Shown one piece after another: positions 9,433 through 24,104 of a stretch of DNA of 24,104 nucleotides (the first letter of the stretch is position 1; every line of letters begins with the position of its first letter). The DNA comes from a virus (lineage: Duplodnaviria; Caudoviricetes). The stretch is taken from IMG/VR virus record IMGVR_UViG_3300025314_000100, positions 1-24,104 of that record; one strand, written 5' to 3'. Made by a program: the position numbers and the translations under genes. A model generated the notes under the pieces. It had not been told where the DNA came from, ran no database searches, and was given only the letters and a program-made list of their open reading frames with translations.

Positions 9433-9591
9433 CTAGTCCTCCCCTTCCCAATGTTCTCCGGCACCTTGCTGGATTTCCCCGCCACACTTGACGCACTTAC
9501 GAGGATGCCCTGGCGGGTAATCAAGTATTTCCTCGTGGCATTCCTCGCACACCGCGCCGCGCTCGATCATTTCAGCCAGACGATCATCCAT
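9433..9591 (-). CDS. 52-aa zinc-ribbon microprotein (not in ORF track)
   Basis: MDDRLAEMIERGAVCEECHEEILDYPPGHPRKCVKCGGEIQQGAGEHWEGED has two CxxC pairs. SD GAGGA. Fills the gap between flanking genes. Confidence 0.8.
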   Translation of the reverse strand: MDDRLAEMIERGAVCEECHEEILDYPPGHPRKCVKCGGEIQQGAGEHWEGED

Positions 9592-10318
9592 TGGTTTCCT
9601 CATTTCCGAAAACGGACTCTTGCTGAATTTCGCTCAATCGGGCGTCGTAAGCCGCCCGAACCCGCGCGACATGGAACGGAGGGAATCCCCGGCTCACGAT
9701 CGCGTTCAAGAACTTTTCTGCCTCTTCTACCGTCGCCGTCTTGATGTTATGCACCGCCTTTTGTACTTTCGCCGACAACTCTTGCGGGCTGAGATTTCGC
9801 CCTTCCTTTTCCTTGTAATATGCCTTGGCATCCTTGTACTTGTCGTCGTCGTATTCGCCATAGTACACGTCCGCATACCAGCCCAAGTACGTCATCGCCT
9901 TTTTCAGGCAATCAGTCTGGAGTTTCTTATTCGTATCCGATCCCTTCCGGCAAGGCCAGTCCGCCGTGACCGCGAACGACCCGCCAGGCCAGTAGAATTC
10001 CGCCAGCATCTCGACCTCTGCTGGCAGAGTTTCCTCACACGTGATTTGCCTCTGCCTGTCGTCCGTCTCCGTCCACGTCCGTTTGGATTGACCGCGATTG
10101 CGAAGTCTGATTTTCCGCAATCCCCACTCTGCGCCGTACGGTCCCCAAAGTGCCGTTGCGCGTTCCTTGATCCACGTCGCGTCGACCGCCGTGAATTTTC
10201 GCTTACCCATCTCGACCGACTTTACGTGCGCGGCGTCCACATGCCGAACTGCATTCCACAGCTTCAGGTTCTCCGACTGCTGTTCGTCGTCCACGATCTG
10301 TTCAAATACGCACCGCAT
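9584..10318 (-). CDS. Rad52/Sak-like single-strand annealing protein
   Basis: 'TAVDATWIKERATALWGPYGAEWG' and 'KKLQTDCLKKAMTYLGWYADVYYGEYDD' resemble the Rad52/22-family core. Confidence 0.75.
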   Translation of the reverse strand: MRCVFEQIVDDEQQSENLKLWNAVRHVDAAHVKSVEMGKRKFTAVDATWIKERATALWGPYGAEWGLRKIRLRNRGQSKRTWTETDDRQRQITCEETLPAEVEMLAEFYWPGGSFAVTADWPCRKGSDTNKKLQTDCLKKAMTYLGWYADVYYGEYDDDKYKDAKAYYKEKEGRNLSPQELSAKVQKAVHNIKTATVEEAEKFLNAIVSRGFPPFHVARVRAAYDARLSEIQQESVFGNEETNG

Positions 10319-10320
10319 TT

Positions 10321-11727
10321 CTATTGCCCTTTCCTTGATCGGCCGAGTTTAAATACGTAGTGGCACTCCGCACCTTCGCTGACGCGCTCCACTAGCACTT
10401 GCGCATCCAAGTCCTCCGCGATTGCCTCCAACTCCTGCAGCCTCTGCTCGTCCAGCAACGATCCGTCGCGGATGATTGCGTATCGGAACACCGGGTTCAG
10501 GCTCACCGCAATCGCCACGGCAATCTTCAGCTGCTCGCTTGACGCCAAGTCCGGCAGCACGTGGCCGTTCCACACCAAGCCTCCAGCCTCGTCAAATCCA
10601 AGACCCTCAATAGGCCATTTAGCCTCTGCCATGGTCTTCTTTTTGTTCCTGTCCAATGCCTCGATCGACTCGGTCAGCTCCAGGGATTCTTTCTTGAGCC
10701 CATTCCGCTGCTGCATGACAGCCAGCCGCGCGTCAACCGCTTCGATCTTCGTGTTGATCTCCGCCGCCTTTTCAATTCGTACGCGGATCGGCTCCGGGTC
10801 GACCTCCGGTTTCCCAAACAGTGGCAACTTTTCTATTTCGGCAAGCTGGATTTTAATCGTTCCGATCTCTCTCTGGAAATCACTACCCCTGCGCTCGGCC
10901 TCTTCAACAATCTTGCACAACATCCGACCCTTTTCGGCATTTAGCGCAGCAATGCGACGATCAAAATCATCGTGTATTCGTTGCGTCTCAACCTCTAGCT
11001 GGGGCGCCAACGTATCCCACCTAGTCATCACGTCTCGCAACTCCCTGTTTTTCTCGGCCATCGTGGCATTCAAAATTCTCAAGGATATGTTGTGATTTTC
11101 AGCCGCACGAATCTCCTGCACCTCTCGCGAAACGTCGATCTTCTCGCGCGGCACGTCGTCGTACATGGGCATCTCGCGCAGGTCGCCCTCGATGTCCCGC
11201 ACTCGCCGATTCAATGCCGTTCGCGCATTGAATAGCCTAGTCCGCTCGATGTCCATTTCCGTGAAGTCCAGCCCGACCAGCTTCTGCACTATGTCCGCCT
11301 GGACCGTGGGTTTTTCTCCGATGAATCGAACTGGGTCGAATTCAAGTTTTCTCGGCGTCAGCAAAGAATCCAAAATCTTCTGCGGCGTAGGTGCTGTCTC
11401 CCCATCGTCCGCGATTATTTTCACTTCCGTTGTGTAGCTCAATCCGCCTTCGTCCCTCGTGATCACCCGATGGACCTTGCATGGCCAAGGCAGCGCCACT
11501 GTCCCTCCGTCCAATGCGATCACGATCTCTGCCTCGTCCTGGCCGTCTTGGATCGGGTCGCGCGGAAATAGTCGCTTACCACCGATCGCCATCGCGATCG
11601 CATCCAGCGCGCTCGACTTTCCCGCCGAGTTGGCCCCCCCCAAGATTGTCAGACCTCGGTCTCGGGGCCGAATGTCCGCGTACTCGCATCCCCGCACGTG
11701 ATACACTTGGATCGTTTGCAATTTCAT
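10321..11727 (-). CDS. SMC/Rad50-like ABC ATPase with long coiled coil
   Basis: Start ATG 11727 (MKLQTIQV). Walker A GANSAGKSS, central coiled coil, signature-like LASSEQ, Walker B IIRDGSLLD. Confidence 0.88.
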   Translation of the reverse strand: MKLQTIQVYHVRGCEYADIRPRDRGLTILGGANSAGKSSALDAIAMAIGGKRLFPRDPIQDGQDEAEIVIALDGGTVALPWPCKVHRVITRDEGGLSYTTEVKIIADDGETAPTPQKILDSLLTPRKLEFDPVRFIGEKPTVQADIVQKLVGLDFTEMDIERTRLFNARTALNRRVRDIEGDLREMPMYDDVPREKIDVSREVQEIRAAENHNISLRILNATMAEKNRELRDVMTRWDTLAPQLEVETQRIHDDFDRRIAALNAEKGRMLCKIVEEAERRGSDFQREIGTIKIQLAEIEKLPLFGKPEVDPEPIRVRIEKAAEINTKIEAVDARLAVMQQRNGLKKESLELTESIEALDRNKKKTMAEAKWPIEGLGFDEAGGLVWNGHVLPDLASSEQLKIAVAIAVSLNPVFRYAIIRDGSLLDEQRLQELEAIAEDLDAQVLVERVSEGAECHYVFKLGRSRKGQ

Positions 11728-11757
11728 GTCCTTGCCCCTTGTGTGATAGTTGACCGA

Positions 11758-11806: not shown

Positions 11807-12136
11807 TCAGTTCTTGTCGAAGAAAAGCGTTTCCCAATAGCTGGCATTTTGCGACTCTCGCAAAGTCTTGTCCAGATACGCAAACAACTCCGGGAAATCT
11901 CTTCGCTCTAGCTCGTCCTCTTCTCCCATGATCCTATTTACAGTCAAGTCGCACAGCTCGGCCCTGTCCGAGCTCCCTGGGTATCCGCTGCCGTCCTTGT
12001 AGTAGATCACCCGAGGCTCTCCGGGCTTTAATTCGAACTGCAACGTTGCCTCCGCCGTCAACCAAAACGATTTCTGATTCTTCCGAGGAAGTTCGATTTC
12101 GAACGTGTGCCCTATGTTCTGCGTGGTTCGTGTCAT
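11807..12136 (-). CDS. hypothetical phage protein
   Basis: SD GGAG 9 nt upstream of ATG 12136. 109 aa. Confidence 0.7.
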   Translation of the reverse strand: MTRTTQNIGHTFEIELPRKNQKSFWLTAEATLQFELKPGEPRVIYYKDGSGYPGSSDRAELCDLTVNRIMGEEDELERRDFPELFAYLDKTLRESQNASYWETLFFDKN

Positions 12137-12218: not shown

Positions 12219-12743
12219 TTAGATCCTCGACAAGATATCGGCAACCCGTGCCGAATAGTCAGAATTGATCGCCAACAGTTCTTCCCTCGTCCACTGACCG
12301 CTTTTCCACTTCAGCGCCAGCAGCCGGTCAATGGTTTCCTGGCCGCGGTTCCGCAGCATCCATGGCCAGTATTCGTCCTTGTTCCCTCCCAGCACGACAT
12401 TGCACCGATGGCATTGCGGGTTGACCCCGTCCGGCTCAAACAGGATCCCCTTCGACCGAGACTGCAGGAAATGCCCCGCATGCATATTCCTGTCGTCCCA
12501 AGGGAGCCTGATGCCGCACGTGACGCACGTGCAATACCCCTCATGATCAGACTTGCTCAGCTTCAGCCACTGTGAAAACACCGCCCACGTAGATCGCTTC
12601 AGCGCCGACACGCCCTCCCGTCGCGCGACCCGGCTGGAACAATACGGGCAAATTTGCTCCTTGACCACTCCGCGACCCGCACGCTTCGGCACAAAGCGCT
12701 TGCCGCATTCCTGGCAACGGATCGTCTTTACCCTAGCCGTCAT
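12219..12743 (-). CDS. ninG: NinG/Rap-family recombination endonuclease with extra N-terminal Zn finger
   Basis: WAVFSQWLK...CVTCG...HAGHF...FEPDGVNPQCHRCN motif set. Confidence 0.85.
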   Translation of the reverse strand: MTARVKTIRCQECGKRFVPKRAGRGVVKEQICPYCSSRVARREGVSALKRSTWAVFSQWLKLSKSDHEGYCTCVTCGIRLPWDDRNMHAGHFLQSRSKGILFEPDGVNPQCHRCNVVLGGNKDEYWPWMLRNRGQETIDRLLALKWKSGQWTREELLAINSDYSARVADILSRI

Positions 12744-12985
12744 CCTCTGACTGCTTTCGCTGTCTCAAACGCCGACTCAAATGCCGACTCGCCTGCTGCG
12801 TCAGAGATTGGCGACGCCGGCCCAGCGCTCCAATAGCCCCCGTTGCTGTCGACGATCCGGCGCAGCCAGCAGTCACCTGTCCGCTTGATCTGATGCAAAT
12901 GGACACCTCCAGTCGCTCGTTTGTCCGTGCCAACCTGATACGTGTACGCCCTTACTTCCCAGGTGTTCCACGAAGTTCGTCGCAT
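12740..12985 (-). CDS. hypothetical accessory protein (81 aa), cassette A
   Basis: ATG 12985 follows the conserved leader element. Its stop overlaps the ninG start (ATGA). Confidence 0.75.
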   Translation of the reverse strand: MRRTSWNTWEVRAYTYQVGTDKRATGGVHLHQIKRTGDCWLRRIVDSNGGYWSAGPASPISDAAGESAFESAFETAKAVRG

Positions 12986-13017
12986 CGTTCTCCCTTGTGT
13001 TGTGGCCCCGGTGGGCC

Positions 13018-14007
13018 TCAGCTTATCGACGCCGATTTTTTCGCGGCCTTCTGTACAGCAATCTCCCGCAATCGCTGCTGCGTCGCCTCGTCCGACTCCA
13101 CGATGCTCCGATAGACCTCCTCCCCGTGGCACCCCGCATACTTGCTCAGCCACGTGGCCGCCTCCTCGGGACTGATGCCGCGGTCGGCGGCACTGGCCAG
13201 GCACGCTGCTTGCATTACGTCCTCCGGCACCCAGTAGTAGTCCCGCCAGTCGTCACCACCAGTAATCGAGTGATGCCACCCGAGCCGGCCGTCAGATAGC
13301 CGGAACGCATAGGCGCAGGACCCTTCCCCAAATCGGATAGATTCGCCTGTTCCCCCGATGTCACCAGGACGGACTGTGCAACAGACAAGTCCTGACTTGG
13401 CGGCTTCCCATGCGGTCATCCGAGCATCCTGCTCTACCTTGGCCTTGGCGGCTACGTCCTTTGCGATCTGTTGCCTCTCGGCCGCCTCAGCAGCCTGAGC
13501 CGCGTCGATCGCCCTCTCCTCGACCGTTGGCTCAACCTCCACGCCGTCCCAGGTGTAATGTCCCCCGGGCTGCTCGCCGAAGATATCACAATCGTCGAGG
13601 AAATCGCGTGACATATACCGCCGTTCCGAACGAGCTACCTGGACGATCCGCTTTCCGGTTCTGGACCGGTGGATCGTGCCGTTCGGGTCGCCATCGTCGT
13701 GCTTGTTCAGGCCGTACACCTCGTACGTCCTGGTAGAGGCCCCAGCCATTGCTGTGCGCTCGTACCGGGACGCCAGCACGCCTGGATCCTCGTCTCCTAC
13801 CAAGTCCGCTGGTGGTGGTGAGGCGTACAGGGTCCCACCGACCAGCGCCTGGCACTCCGCTCGGACCTCCTCGGTCGGAGCGTACCAGCTTTTACTGCCG
13901 GGATCCCACGCGCATCCTTTCCCCTTGATGGCGCCTCTGTGCGCGTAAGTCTCGCCCGAGATTCGCAATCCCAGGCCGACAACCGAACTAGCTTCCTGAC
14001 GTGTCAT
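13018..14007 (-). CDS. hypothetical accessory protein (329 aa), cassette B
   Basis: ATG 14007 follows the leader element. The N-terminal 'GETYAHRGAIKGKGCAWDPGSKSWY' is a DUF5710-like small domain. Confidence 0.8.
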   Translation of the reverse strand: MTRQEASSVVGLGLRISGETYAHRGAIKGKGCAWDPGSKSWYAPTEEVRAECQALVGGTLYASPPPADLVGDEDPGVLASRYERTAMAGASTRTYEVYGLNKHDDGDPNGTIHRSRTGKRIVQVARSERRYMSRDFLDDCDIFGEQPGGHYTWDGVEVEPTVEERAIDAAQAAEAAERQQIAKDVAAKAKVEQDARMTAWEAAKSGLVCCTVRPGDIGGTGESIRFGEGSCAYAFRLSDGRLGWHHSITGGDDWRDYYWVPEDVMQAACLASAADRGISPEEAATWLSKYAGCHGEEVYRSIVESDEATQQRLREIAVQKAAKKSASIS

Positions 14008-14050
14008 CGTTTCCCCTTTCATGTTGTGGCCCCCGCGGGGGGCTAATCCA

Positions 14051-14248
14051 TTACTCAATCCTCACCAGTGCCGCGCTTGATCGAGGATACGCACGATGAA
14101 TTTTCCGCAATGTGCCCCGCGCCTGCGATAACGACATGCGTTGCGCAGCTTGACTGGTGAGTTTCCAGTCGCAGCAAATGCACTGCCACCGGTTCTGCCG
14201 GATGGCATACCAATTCCCCATGAACATCGCACAGACGATGAATTTCAT
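14051..14248 (-). CDS. hypothetical accessory protein (65 aa), cassette C
   Basis: ATG 14248 (MKFIVC) follows the leader element. Confidence 0.7.
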   Translation of the reverse strand: MKFIVCAMFMGNWYAIRQNRWQCICCDWKLTSQAAQRMSLSQARGTLRKIHRAYPRSSAALVRIE

Positions 14249-14364
14249 CACCTTACCCCCTTTGTGTTGTGGCCCCCCTTGGGCCTTGTTGATGTGCGAT
14301 GGCATACATCCGCCGCGCAAAAAGGTGCACCATCACCACTCTGTGTGCGACCGCGGTCGCGAGG

Positions 14365-14445
14365 AAAAAAGGCCGGCGCGGAAAACAGCGAGTCACCAAC
14401 CGAAACTCTAAAAGAAGACACGCTTTGATGGGGCCGCGCCGGCCC
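14365..14445 (-). terminator. long hairpin with U-tract and an alternative fold
   Basis: Minus strand GGCCGGCGCGG (14444-14434) pairs with CCGCGCCGGCC (14381-14371), followed by TTTTTT. Confidence 0.55.
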
Positions 14446-14503
14446 AAGAATCACCTTAGTGAAAACGCTCCCGCCGCGACGCTCGTGGGGCGTTTCGGTT
14501 CCG

Positions 14504-15193
14504 TCACACAACGGCGGCCCATGCCGCCGCCGCCAGACACCCCTCGGCCGCGGCTCGGGACTCGGTCATTACGACCTGCCCCGCGACACACTCCACCCGC
14601 AGGCAGGCTGGCTTACCGTAGAGCCGTCCGCTACGGACGATCTCCACGGCCTGCCCGTGCGCCAACACGAGCAAGTACTCCGGGCCTCCACCCATCATTC
14701 CGGCTTGGCCTTGGGCCGCATAACCCTCAGCGACTACCGTCGCGGATGGTTTCCGCTCTTCGATCGGCGGCGGGCACGCTGGGCAACGGGCTCCGCCCAT
14801 CGGGGCGTCGTGACCCAAGCTGGCCGCGCAGAAGGCGGCCTTATTCTCTTCGTTCGTGCCGTCGGCGCGATAGGCGCCGCGACCAGCTTCCACGCACCGC
14901 TCATGCTCCGCAGCGGTGCACACGACCCTATCCCATTCTTCCGCCGAACGGGCGTCCCGAAGACGCCACGTACCACGGAACCCGGAATGATCCGGGATGT
15001 ACAGGAGGGCATTTGCCCCCCCATCGGATTCGATCAGCAGATTTGCATCTCCTCCTGGCCGAATGTCGGACTCCATCACCGACCCAGGCGGTAACGGAAC
15101 CGATACCAGCTTCCGGCCCCGGCCGGATTCTCCGACAGGAATCGTCCCGGAATCGCACCGGATTCCGGGACAGTCCATGGTGAAACAAAACAT
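14504..15193 (-). CDS. hypothetical accessory protein (229 aa), cassette D
   Basis: ATG 15193 (MFCFTM) follows the leader element, with SD GGAGG. Confidence 0.75.
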   Translation of the reverse strand: MFCFTMDCPGIRCDSGTIPVGESGRGRKLVSVPLPPGSVMESDIRPGGDANLLIESDGGANALLYIPDHSGFRGTWRLRDARSAEEWDRVVCTAAEHERCVEAGRGAYRADGTNEENKAAFCAASLGHDAPMGGARCPACPPPIEERKPSATVVAEGYAAQGQAGMMGGGPEYLLVLAHGQAVEIVRSGRLYGKPACLRVECVAGQVVMTESRAAAEGCLAAAAWAAVV

Positions 15194-15361
15194 GTGTCTT
15201 GTCCTCCCCTTTGTGTTGTGGCCCCACGGGGCCAGAAAAAACAAAACACGCACCGACCGCAGACAGCCAGCCTTGAGCCCACTTGGGCCGGCCAGAAATC
15301 TATCACTCGCACCCACCTGGGTGCATATGACCCCACCCAGGACGTGCTGAGTACTCCGGCT

Positions 15362-15407
15362 CGCGCGACGACGGGAATCGAACCCGCAACCGCCAGCGAT
15401 CGGCGCG
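15362..15407 (-). ncRNA. tRNA-like fragment (acceptor stem + T-arm, no D or anticodon arm)
   Basis: GCGGG-TTCGATT-CCCGT T-arm at 15387-15371. CGCGCCG/CGTCGCG acceptor-like stem pairs 6 of 7. Confidence 0.45.
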
Positions 15408-15586
15408 TGTGCCCCCCTATCAAGCCGGGGGGCGTGGCGATTCAATTTCGTTTCCCCTTTGCGTTGTTGTTTTCGTCCATTCCTGCCAGGAATACACTGC
15501 ATGTTGTGTGCCAATTGGGCACGTTTCTGTAGGCCGATTTTGTGGGGAATTTTGGCCATTCTCCGTGGCTATCGGTCTTGATTTGG

Positions 15587-15714
15587 GGCGTTTTGCCACA
15601 GTGGTTTGGGGCATTGTGCCGCGCTGTCCACTAAACCATTGGAACATAAGAAGTTAGCGTGTGGCGTTTTGCCCCATGGAGATTGGGGCATTGTGCCCCA
15701 TGGGACATTTTGCC
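15587..15714. promoter_or_regulatory. five operator-like 11-mers, consensus GGCRTTKTGCC
   Basis: Copies at 15587, 15610, 15663, 15687 and a variant at 15704. They lie next to and within the 3' end of the XRE gene. Confidence 0.55.
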
Positions 15715-15935
15715 ACGCTAGCCGGCTGGCAAAGAATCTGGGTGTCGAGCCCAAGACGATTGGCAATCCCGATTAGCCGTTCAATCGTCGGCGTTTTCGT
15801 CCCGTTCTCCACGTGCGCGTAATCGCCGCGGGTCAATCCCACGAGTTGGGCCGCGTCAACCTGAGTGAGATGAAGGGCCTTCCGGTGCACCCGAATACAC
15901 CGCCGCAGATAGGCGTGATAGATTGTCTTGGGCAT
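15654..15935 (-). CDS. XRE/Cro-CI family HTH transcriptional regulator
   Basis: IRVHRKALHLTQVDAAQLVGLTRGDYAHVENGTKTPTIERLIGIANRLG is a canonical HTH_3 pattern. Confidence 0.88.
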   Translation of the reverse strand: MPKTIYHAYLRRCIRVHRKALHLTQVDAAQLVGLTRGDYAHVENGTKTPTIERLIGIANRLGLDTQILCQPASVAKCPMGHNAPISMGQNATR

Positions 15936-16040
15936 AGTTGATTTGGTGGCAACTGGCGTGCCGCCAGTCGCCTCGCTGCTACGTTGTCCGCGAGAGTCAT
16001 GCTTCTACCTCTGGGCCAAATCCATGCGATGATACATCTC

Positions 16041-23820: not shown

Positions 23821-24104
23821 ATGGTCTCTGAAGCCCGTCACACCCTACCACGTTTATTTTTGGTTTGCATGATCGTTCTACTCGTCTGGACTCATTCAGG
23901 GATCGCAGCCCAACGAGAAGTTCGGGTGTTCTGCCCTGGATGCCGCCAAGCGATTCTGAGGCCGGGACAACTCGCGTATCAGTCCTACCAGACGGTGCCC
24001 GCGCTCCGCTGGGGGATTTTTGGGCGCCGGCTCGTGCCGTGCGCCATGTACGTTCCTGGTCCTGTGTACGTGCCATGGATTCCCAGCGGAGCGCGGGCAC
24101 CGTC
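23821..24104 (+). CDS. partial secreted protein with signal peptide (not in ORF track, runs off the end)
   Basis: MVSEARHTLPRLFLVCMIVLLVWTHSGIAA|QREVRVFCPGC...; SD AAGGAGG and an upstream promoter. Confidence 0.7.
   Translation, partial: MVSEARHTLPRLFLVCMIVLLVWTHSGIAAQREVRVFCPGCRQAILRPGQLAYQSYQTVPALRWGIFGRRLVPCAMYVPGPVYVPWIPSGARAP

Follow-up and report, generated by a model that had tools for sequence, protein, structure and literature searches.

The stretch of DNA analysed here (the window; 24,104 nucleotides, positions 1–24,104 of IMG/VR record IMGVR_UViG_3300025314_000100) matches part of a complete tailed-phage record of 45,336 bp, which has terminal repeats and contains terminase, head, portal-side and tail genes. 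On its minus strand lies a run of four genes, D (14504–15193, 229 amino acids), C (14051–14248, 65 amino acids), B (13018–14007, 329 amino acids) and A (12740–12985, 81 amino acids), each headed by a copy of the same short leader element. Read 5' to 3', the element comprises a GGCCC/GGGCC stem of 5–6 bp, an A/C linker, a G-rich Shine-Dalgarno sequence and the ATG, in a unit of 30–40 nt. The ATGs at 15193, 14248, 14007 and 12985 are served by copy D (15194–15233, with a 5-bp GC stem and a 4-nt loop), copy C (14249–14285), copy B (14008–14043) and copy A (12986–13017), all on the minus strand. An XRE-family helix-turn-helix gene (15654–15935, minus strand) and gene E (11807–12136, minus strand, 109 amino acids) form the conserved upstream and downstream anchors of the array.

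The initial annotation reported four invariant copies of a 12-mer ahead of these ATGs, and exact search bears this out. The sequence GGGGCCACAACA occurs four times in the window, always on the minus strand (12998, 14022, 14265 and 15214), against a mean of 0.01 in shuffled sequences, none of the 100 shuffles reaching four copies; its distance to the ATG is 15–21 nt. Throughout the complete record the 11-mer core is found exactly at the same four sites and no further ones. A profile built from 15 element copies likewise matches, in the window and the rest of the record, only the four copies of the array, in agreement with the earlier claim that no full element precedes core genes. Two degenerate copies had also been proposed: that at 15447–15475 is indeed a hairpin-less linker with a Shine-Dalgarno sequence, whereas that at 11728–11750 heads the core gene of an SMC-like ATPase and is unmatched by the profile.

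Copy A immediately follows the stop codon of gene B and copy B lies 7 nt past that of gene C, as originally described. Copies C and D are exceptions to this near-stop placement, at 218 and 186 nt from the end of the upstream open reading frame, and gene A overlaps ninG (ATGA), so that the proposed unit of one element plus one open reading frame holds for part of the array only. Among the 14 copies that could be resolved in this and other contigs, the upstream stop codon TAG overlaps the first G of the stem in five and lies at most 13 nt away in six more (11 of 14 in total). A TAG before or overlapping the stem is also retained in two copies in which it is not the stop codon.

Stems were anchored by script and compared in 15 copies from six contigs. 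Pairs 1–5 are nearly always G-C, G-C, C-G, C-G and C-G, with three mismatches and one U-G, and departures on both sides of the stem are confined to one degenerate copy of doubtful register. Stem and linker are fixed in sequence, and the loop is the variable part of the element. Pair counts from the ungapped alignment A3, in which the stems are out of register, were rejected in favour of the re-anchored stems. No U-tract follows the element stems on the sense strand, and a terminator score is obtained solely for copy C, on the antisense strand. Sigma70-like sites between 11500 and 16500 number two against 1.6 expected, and neither coincides with an element. Rfam 15 yields no relevant match to the element in the window, in 14 other loci or in six short element loci, where the best match is a 15-bit histone stem-loop, at chance level.

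Promoter-like motifs and the leader ahead of the array

The -24/-12 consensus of sigma54 promoters is GG-N10-GC. Motifs of this type lie on the minus strand ahead of the array (15498–15513) and ahead of the XRE gene (15948–15963), and both recur in the same places in a metagenomic contig, L264/L265. Two of the three matches in the window fall at these two syntenic intergenic sites (0.61 expected), as do both matches in L265 (4496–4509 and 4909–4922, minus strand; 0.14 expected). No match to sigma54 activator families was found among the phage proteins scanned. In the accessible parts of two reports, dependence on sigma54 is documented for phage YuA and termed rare (PMC5053324; bioRxiv 2023.10.13.562163). 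Five GGCA-containing box repeats (15540–15714, minus strand), situated 40–200 nt upstream of the sigma54-type motif, are candidate enhancer, operator or iteron sites.

The hairpin-less linker and Shine-Dalgarno sequence at 15447–15475 (minus strand) lies just past the sigma54-type motif; what follows it is, here, a TTG that shares the reading frame of gene D and, in related contigs, a different sequence. Between it and copy D extends a structured leader (15250–15446, minus strand) with no Rfam match; the folding z-score for 15170–15490 is -4.06. A U-rich strand (15234–15249, minus strand), peculiar to copy D, is the predicted partner of the Shine-Dalgarno region of gene D: in the predicted fold, an extra lower stem of 16 pairs, many of them G-U, sequesters the Shine-Dalgarno sequence of this copy. 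The leader also contains, near 15370–15390, a hairpin resembling a tRNA T-arm, and a similar hairpin lies upstream of an L265 gene; ARAGORN reports no tRNA in the leader, nor were tRNAs found in five loci scanned. Promoter-proximal first genes (in L059, L071, L264 and, at 15447–15475, the window) often have the linker and Shine-Dalgarno sequence without the hairpin and internal genes have it, L062 and L067 being exceptions.

Related arrays and the leaders in equivalent slots

The contig L264/L265 comes from a scan of metagenomes in which linker and Shine-Dalgarno sequence were required and the stem was not (117 loci). Its anchors stand in the same order as in the window: the XRE gene (38% identity), gene E (43% identity) and both sigma54-type motifs. 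The interval between the XRE gene and gene E of L264 holds ten genes, none of them similar to genes A–D when these are queried against L264, and no NinG homolog. Five of the ten are led by the element, four by a hairpin-less A/C leader and one by a predicted type II hammerhead (RF02276; 3934–3996, minus strand; 47.7 bits, the gathering score being 37). Stem III of this hammerhead resembles the element hairpin in sequence.

A third array, in L236, comprises two element copies, with a gene E homolog at its end; one element-headed gene is common to L236 and L298 and has different upstream neighbours in the two. A near-identical element recurs in four or five divergent contigs that have almost no array genes in common. 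Variable gene number or order with breakpoints at the element had been named in the initial annotation as a sign of cassette exchange; in these relatives the genes lying between XRE and gene E do vary, and the element stands at the junctions. In L057 and L067, which carry a closely similar hairpin element identical over 30 nt, the flanks diverge, and the similarity starts at one element copy and stops at another. An unrelated phage (L062, 4700–5700) has four copies of a sister element (ACCACC-GGCC stem-ACAAC-Shine-Dalgarno) heading consecutive small genes.

Contigs from the sequencing runs that contain the phage point to further relatives: in them a different insert, of 517 nt, lies between two elements, and the promoter region is followed 20 letters on by a full element. 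Such short-stretch matches are read as related phages with variable content, not as strain-level excision. Joints linking two of the phage's own copies were absent from the contigs of six runs, which drop rare variants, so that this result does not speak against cassette circles or deletions; two contig joints involve the element, in lower-depth contigs where the match is confined to the element or the promoter. A query of IMG/VR with the SMC-like ATPase returned the phage's own record only, and a strict IMG/VR scan for the element gave six loci, three of which belong to that record. A TAG-anchored scan gave 120 loci, eight of which passed the leader filter, none being like this array family; in species genomes 58 loci were detected, with no array among them.

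Gene D, which has 254 relatives, occurs under several leader types, and its family tracks repeated-leader arrays. In nine other viral loci with a gene D homolog the element is present in none (0/9), and other repeated structured leaders are present in seven, by inspection. Four of these loci, about 80–88% identical (L398, L400, L401 and L402), each carry two type I hammerheads by descriptor match; for one copy Rfam gives a match to RF00163 (E 2.8e-4, below the gathering score). Cleavage at these leaders would leave a 3' product that has a small GC hairpin, together with a Shine-Dalgarno sequence, at its start. An 84-amino-acid gene stands after D in L398 and L401 and before D in L400, L400 and L402 have an inserted gene of 95–97 amino acids ahead of D, and L402 has a different gene after D. 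The ends of the alignment blocks coincide with the leaders. Judged from sequence, this group, with early genes set apart by hammerhead-like leaders, would represent a clean case of ribozyme-bounded cassette shuffling. The proposal of cassette exchange at the element itself is supported as regards variable gene content, but nucleotide-level breakpoints are seen only in related types (L057/L067 and the hammerhead arrays), not at the copies of the window.

Neither the element nor the window gives an Rfam match to a hammerhead, and no descriptor match occurs in the window or the rest of the record. A hammerhead-like descriptor match 18 nt upstream of a hairpin in L019 was not recovered by Rfam at E <= 0.1 and is kept as a lead only. 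In L399 (800–1700) and L403 (4420–6000), repeated leaders before gene D homologs appear by eye to be compact pseudoknots abutting the Shine-Dalgarno sequence; they have no Rfam match.

A looser GGCC-stem/ACAAC/Shine-Dalgarno pattern is widespread, with an estimated 260 or so stretches in IMG/VR. In unrelated contigs, association of the stem with the ribosome site was assessed by two tests, the design of which does not presuppose that they occur together: the counts are 14 of 80 versus 13 of 328 in the first test (p = 1e-4), while the second gives 7 of 20 versus 120 of 905 (p = 0.013). The building block is common, and its repeated use at array junctions is lineage-specific. Some single copies precede genes that were read by eye as core genes.

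Function of the element

We consider it somewhat better than an even bet (probability about 0.55) that the element is a portable mRNA punctuation and translation-start module which also provides short homology for gene swaps via a predicted Rad52/Sak-like annealase of the phage. The mRNA module is supported by the change of gene content between conserved anchors, the presence of hammerheads in the same slots, the linkage of stem and ribosome site, the near-stop placement and the open start region. A shared RNA signal had been one of two alternatives in the initial annotation, and it is strengthened by the hammerheads of L264 and of the arrays with gene D homologs. A single transcript starting from the sigma54-like motif at 15498–15513 would span the run. 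At each cistron border the stem would lock up G/C-rich sequence and halt scanning or exonucleolytic decay, and the downstream gene would then initiate de novo, whatever precedes it, each gene having an open ribosome site of its own. Hammerhead leaders in equivalent slots would do the same job by cutting. Because any gene behind the element would be expressed, recombination between copies matching over 20–28 nt could yield viable gains, losses and reorderings; such events would be occasional and aided by the annealase.

Folding backs the translation-insulation role only modestly. Predicted openness between positions -20 and +3 is 0.60 for element genes (n = 14) and 0.47 for core genes (n = 25; p = 0.006), and opening the stem in silico reduces Shine-Dalgarno accessibility from 0.55 to 0.42 (p = 0.025). 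Several results nevertheless weigh against a module of this kind. The Shine-Dalgarno sequence as such shows no gain in openness over core genes (0.55 versus 0.54, p = 0.91), and the ribosome site of copy D is predicted to be occluded (unpaired probability 0.32). The stems of the 15 copies show no compensatory base change, and there is no strand bias of G-U over A-C (7 versus 9 of 34 positions), so that structure at the RNA level is not shown by covariation; the earlier suggestion of selection on structure, made for a stem that proves fixed in sequence, is not supported. Perfect identity between the window copies is 12–20 nt, and at least 23 nt (23–28 nt) are identical in 6 of the 87 between-phage copy pairs; the homology length for Red-beta is given as 23–27 nt in the accessible part of one study (PMC3945230). 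With identity of at most 20 nt in the window and 23–28 nt in few pairs, exchange would be rare and mostly between phages. The looser motif is single-copy in 58 of 120 loci, two copies occurring in one, and is found in 7 of 58 cellular loci. Finally, co-occurrence with hammerheads is limited, at 3 of 65 loci compared with 1 of 274 (p = 0.023, in an incompletely de-duplicated set).

Alternatively, the element could be primarily a DNA recombination junction, integron-like or annealase-driven, in which case its sequence would be kept by exchange and the ribosome site would be a passenger. Such a role would suit a stem that is fixed in sequence without covarying, a TAG that overlaps the stem as stop codon in 5 of 14 copies and is kept in two without that function, variable gene content, and similarity that breaks at the element in L057/L067. 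Genes for a predicted Rad52/Sak-like protein and for NinG are adjacent. The former (9584–10318, minus strand, 244 amino acids) is labelled exonuclease in PHROGs, and the original Sak-like call is tentatively supported by fold: RAD52 occupies the nine top rows of the Foldseek matches (E 0.002–0.012, probability 0.89–0.99; model pLDDT 62), and 80alpha Sak is among the matches, all of which have E > 0.001. However, no integrase family was matched in 36 window open reading frames (PHROGs, Pfam) or in 36 selected other frames of the complete record (PHROGs), excisionase-like helix-turn-helix matches being all that appeared. A strongly diverged integrase, or an enzyme of the host, may act instead, but the integron-type site-specific system that had been suggested is not supported by the frames scanned. 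The 12–20 nt of perfect identity between window copies also count against a junction, and a dedicated site would not tolerate hammerhead and hairpin-less leaders at the equivalent junctions of L264. We regard a primary role in recombination as unlikely, though as more probable than the two readings that follow.

An operator role seems improbable. The element would then be recognised, as RNA hairpin or DNA palindrome, by a regulator such as the adjacent XRE protein, and swappable genes would be switched together. Fixed stem and linker sequences, the conservation of the XRE gene as an anchor of the array and the alternative fold of copy D that masks the Shine-Dalgarno sequence would fit this role; the loop, however, which is the usual recognition surface of RNA-hairpin binders, is the variable part, and the same stem and linker occur in unrelated phages and cellular genomes. 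Least probable is a reading in which no special system is involved, and a strong ribosome site of generic type, suited to a GC-rich host, together with an ordinary post-stop hairpin, has spread through the array by duplication: the single and cellular occurrences of hairpin-ACAAC-Shine-Dalgarno leaders given above fit it, as do the post-stop structures reported for 18–65% of bacterial genes in the accessible text of PMC7518266, but the phage has no copy outside the array and none before core genes, and the element recurs near-identically in divergent contigs that have almost no array genes in common.

The mRNA module has several parallels, described here from the accessible parts of the papers concerned. 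Clustered prophage hammerheads (Perreault et al. 2011, PMC3088659) are likewise repeated RNA elements flanking single, inconstant genes of phage operons, and they cleave; the purpose of hammerheads between variable genes of phage operons is said to be still open (PMC6765202). The present element differs in being a hairpin of 5–6 bp with no hammerhead core, from which no self-cutting is expected. The layout of a hammerhead-punctuated operon is found in L264 (RF02276) and, by descriptor, in L398, L400, L401 and L402, but not in the window array. The PeSLs of the T4-type phages RB49 and phi1 (Arbiol et al. 2010, PMC2839356) also place a repeated stem-loop and a Shine-Dalgarno sequence before orphan genes of a variable region, and have been proposed as junctions for gene shuffling. 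PeSLs, however, measure about 100 bp, each has a sigma70 promoter and a terminator-like stem, some 50 occur per genome, and mini-circles have been demonstrated; the present element has 30–40 nt, no promoter, no U-tract and 4–5 copies, with no circles in assembled contigs.

The start-associated sequences (SAS) and the ESAS of cluster K mycobacteriophages (Pope et al. 2011, PMC3203893) resemble the element as conserved, oriented repeats over the ribosome site of non-structural genes, and the conservation of SAS exceeds what pairing with the anti-Shine-Dalgarno sequence needs. The 13-bp SAS consensus GGGATAGGAGCCC is nevertheless unrelated to the element consensus (alignment A3), and the 17-bp inverted repeats of ESAS were judged not to form hairpins, whereas the arms of the element are 5–6 bp long and pair near-perfectly. 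The ribosome termination structure (Chemla et al. 2020, PMC7518266), a stable structure directly after the stop codon where the two genes of a pair are separated by over 25 nt, has been proposed to insulate against re-initiation; it is a statistical feature of folding, whereas the present element is a fixed repeat with a ribosome site joined to it. Integron attC arrays and the DUF1874 motif (Weinberg et al. 2017, PMC5737381) share with it the alternation of repeat and open reading frame and the potential to form hairpins.

The element is far shorter than attC and carries a ribosome site, and it lacks an integrase among the frames scanned. The bottom strand of an attC site folds into a hairpin of about 55–140 nt, with R and L boxes RYYYAAC/GTTRRRY; a stem of 5–6 bp in a unit of 30–40 nt is not such a long hairpin. 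In its working the element resembles PeSLs and hammerhead-punctuated operons, and it belongs to neither of them, nor to SAS or integrons. No description of it was found in the literature covered, which excluded the supplement of Weinberg et al. 2017 and subscription journals, and the accessible part of bioRxiv 2023.04.06.535777 holds nothing on intergenic repeats. The strategy is already published, in the form of PeSLs, mycobacteriophage SAS and hammerhead-punctuated prophage operons; what is new is the element as such, together with the apparent ability of ribozymes and element to replace each other and the conservation of a sigma54-like motif.

A bolder extension, which we hold to be doubtful, is a sigma54-driven, integrase-free gene-capture array in which the 35-nt leader would be both a universal Rad52/Sak-like crossover and a non-catalytic stand-in for a ribozyme. 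If so, phages of one habitat would draw on a common stock of plug-in genes, each forming an mRNA unit that is stabilised and translated on its own, and the clustering of ribozymes in phage accessory operons would be explained. The mixture of hammerhead, hairpin and hairpin-less leaders in one array, together with the occurrence of gene D under several leaders, makes the question of ribozyme clustering testable. If a hairpin can replace a ribozyme, the job they have in common would be insulation or end protection and not cleavage itself. A context-independent ribosome site of 35 nt would also be a natural insulator part.

Genes of the array and other features

Genes A–D have no match in PHROGs, PADLOC or NCBIfam and no Pfam match above the cut-off, and the role in host takeover or anti-defence once suggested for them is unsupported. 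Gene A has one relative, 81% identical, gene B has an N-terminal match to DUF5710 that is sub-threshold only, with leads in Atlas below 0.8 only, and gene C has no family match. Gene D belongs to a widespread family with function-free annotation, 60 members of which gave no PHROGs match; Atlas gave no usable match. Its model is confident (pLDDT 88.6) and it has invariant glycine-rich motifs; there is no clear structural match (best Z 4.2; no Foldseek match at E <= 0.001), which does not imply a new fold. Neither gene D nor element D was matched in GenBank phages.

The start of the gene for a NinG/Rap-family nuclease (12219–12743, minus strand) is what overlaps the stop codon of gene A, and the SMC/Rad50-like ATPase (10321–11727, minus strand) is the first core gene past the array. 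The 218-nt gap between gene D and copy C (14286–14503, minus strand) contains several short hairpins and U-runs and could be an attenuator. At the end of the window (23991–24104), the final 20 nt or so, which deviate from the complete record, make up a perfect inverted repeat of 23 nt with 23991–24013; a fold-back artefact of the assembly is the probable source. Between 18189 and 18605 lies a GC-rich degenerate tandem repeat with units of about 5 nt, which is open in two frames of the minus strand.

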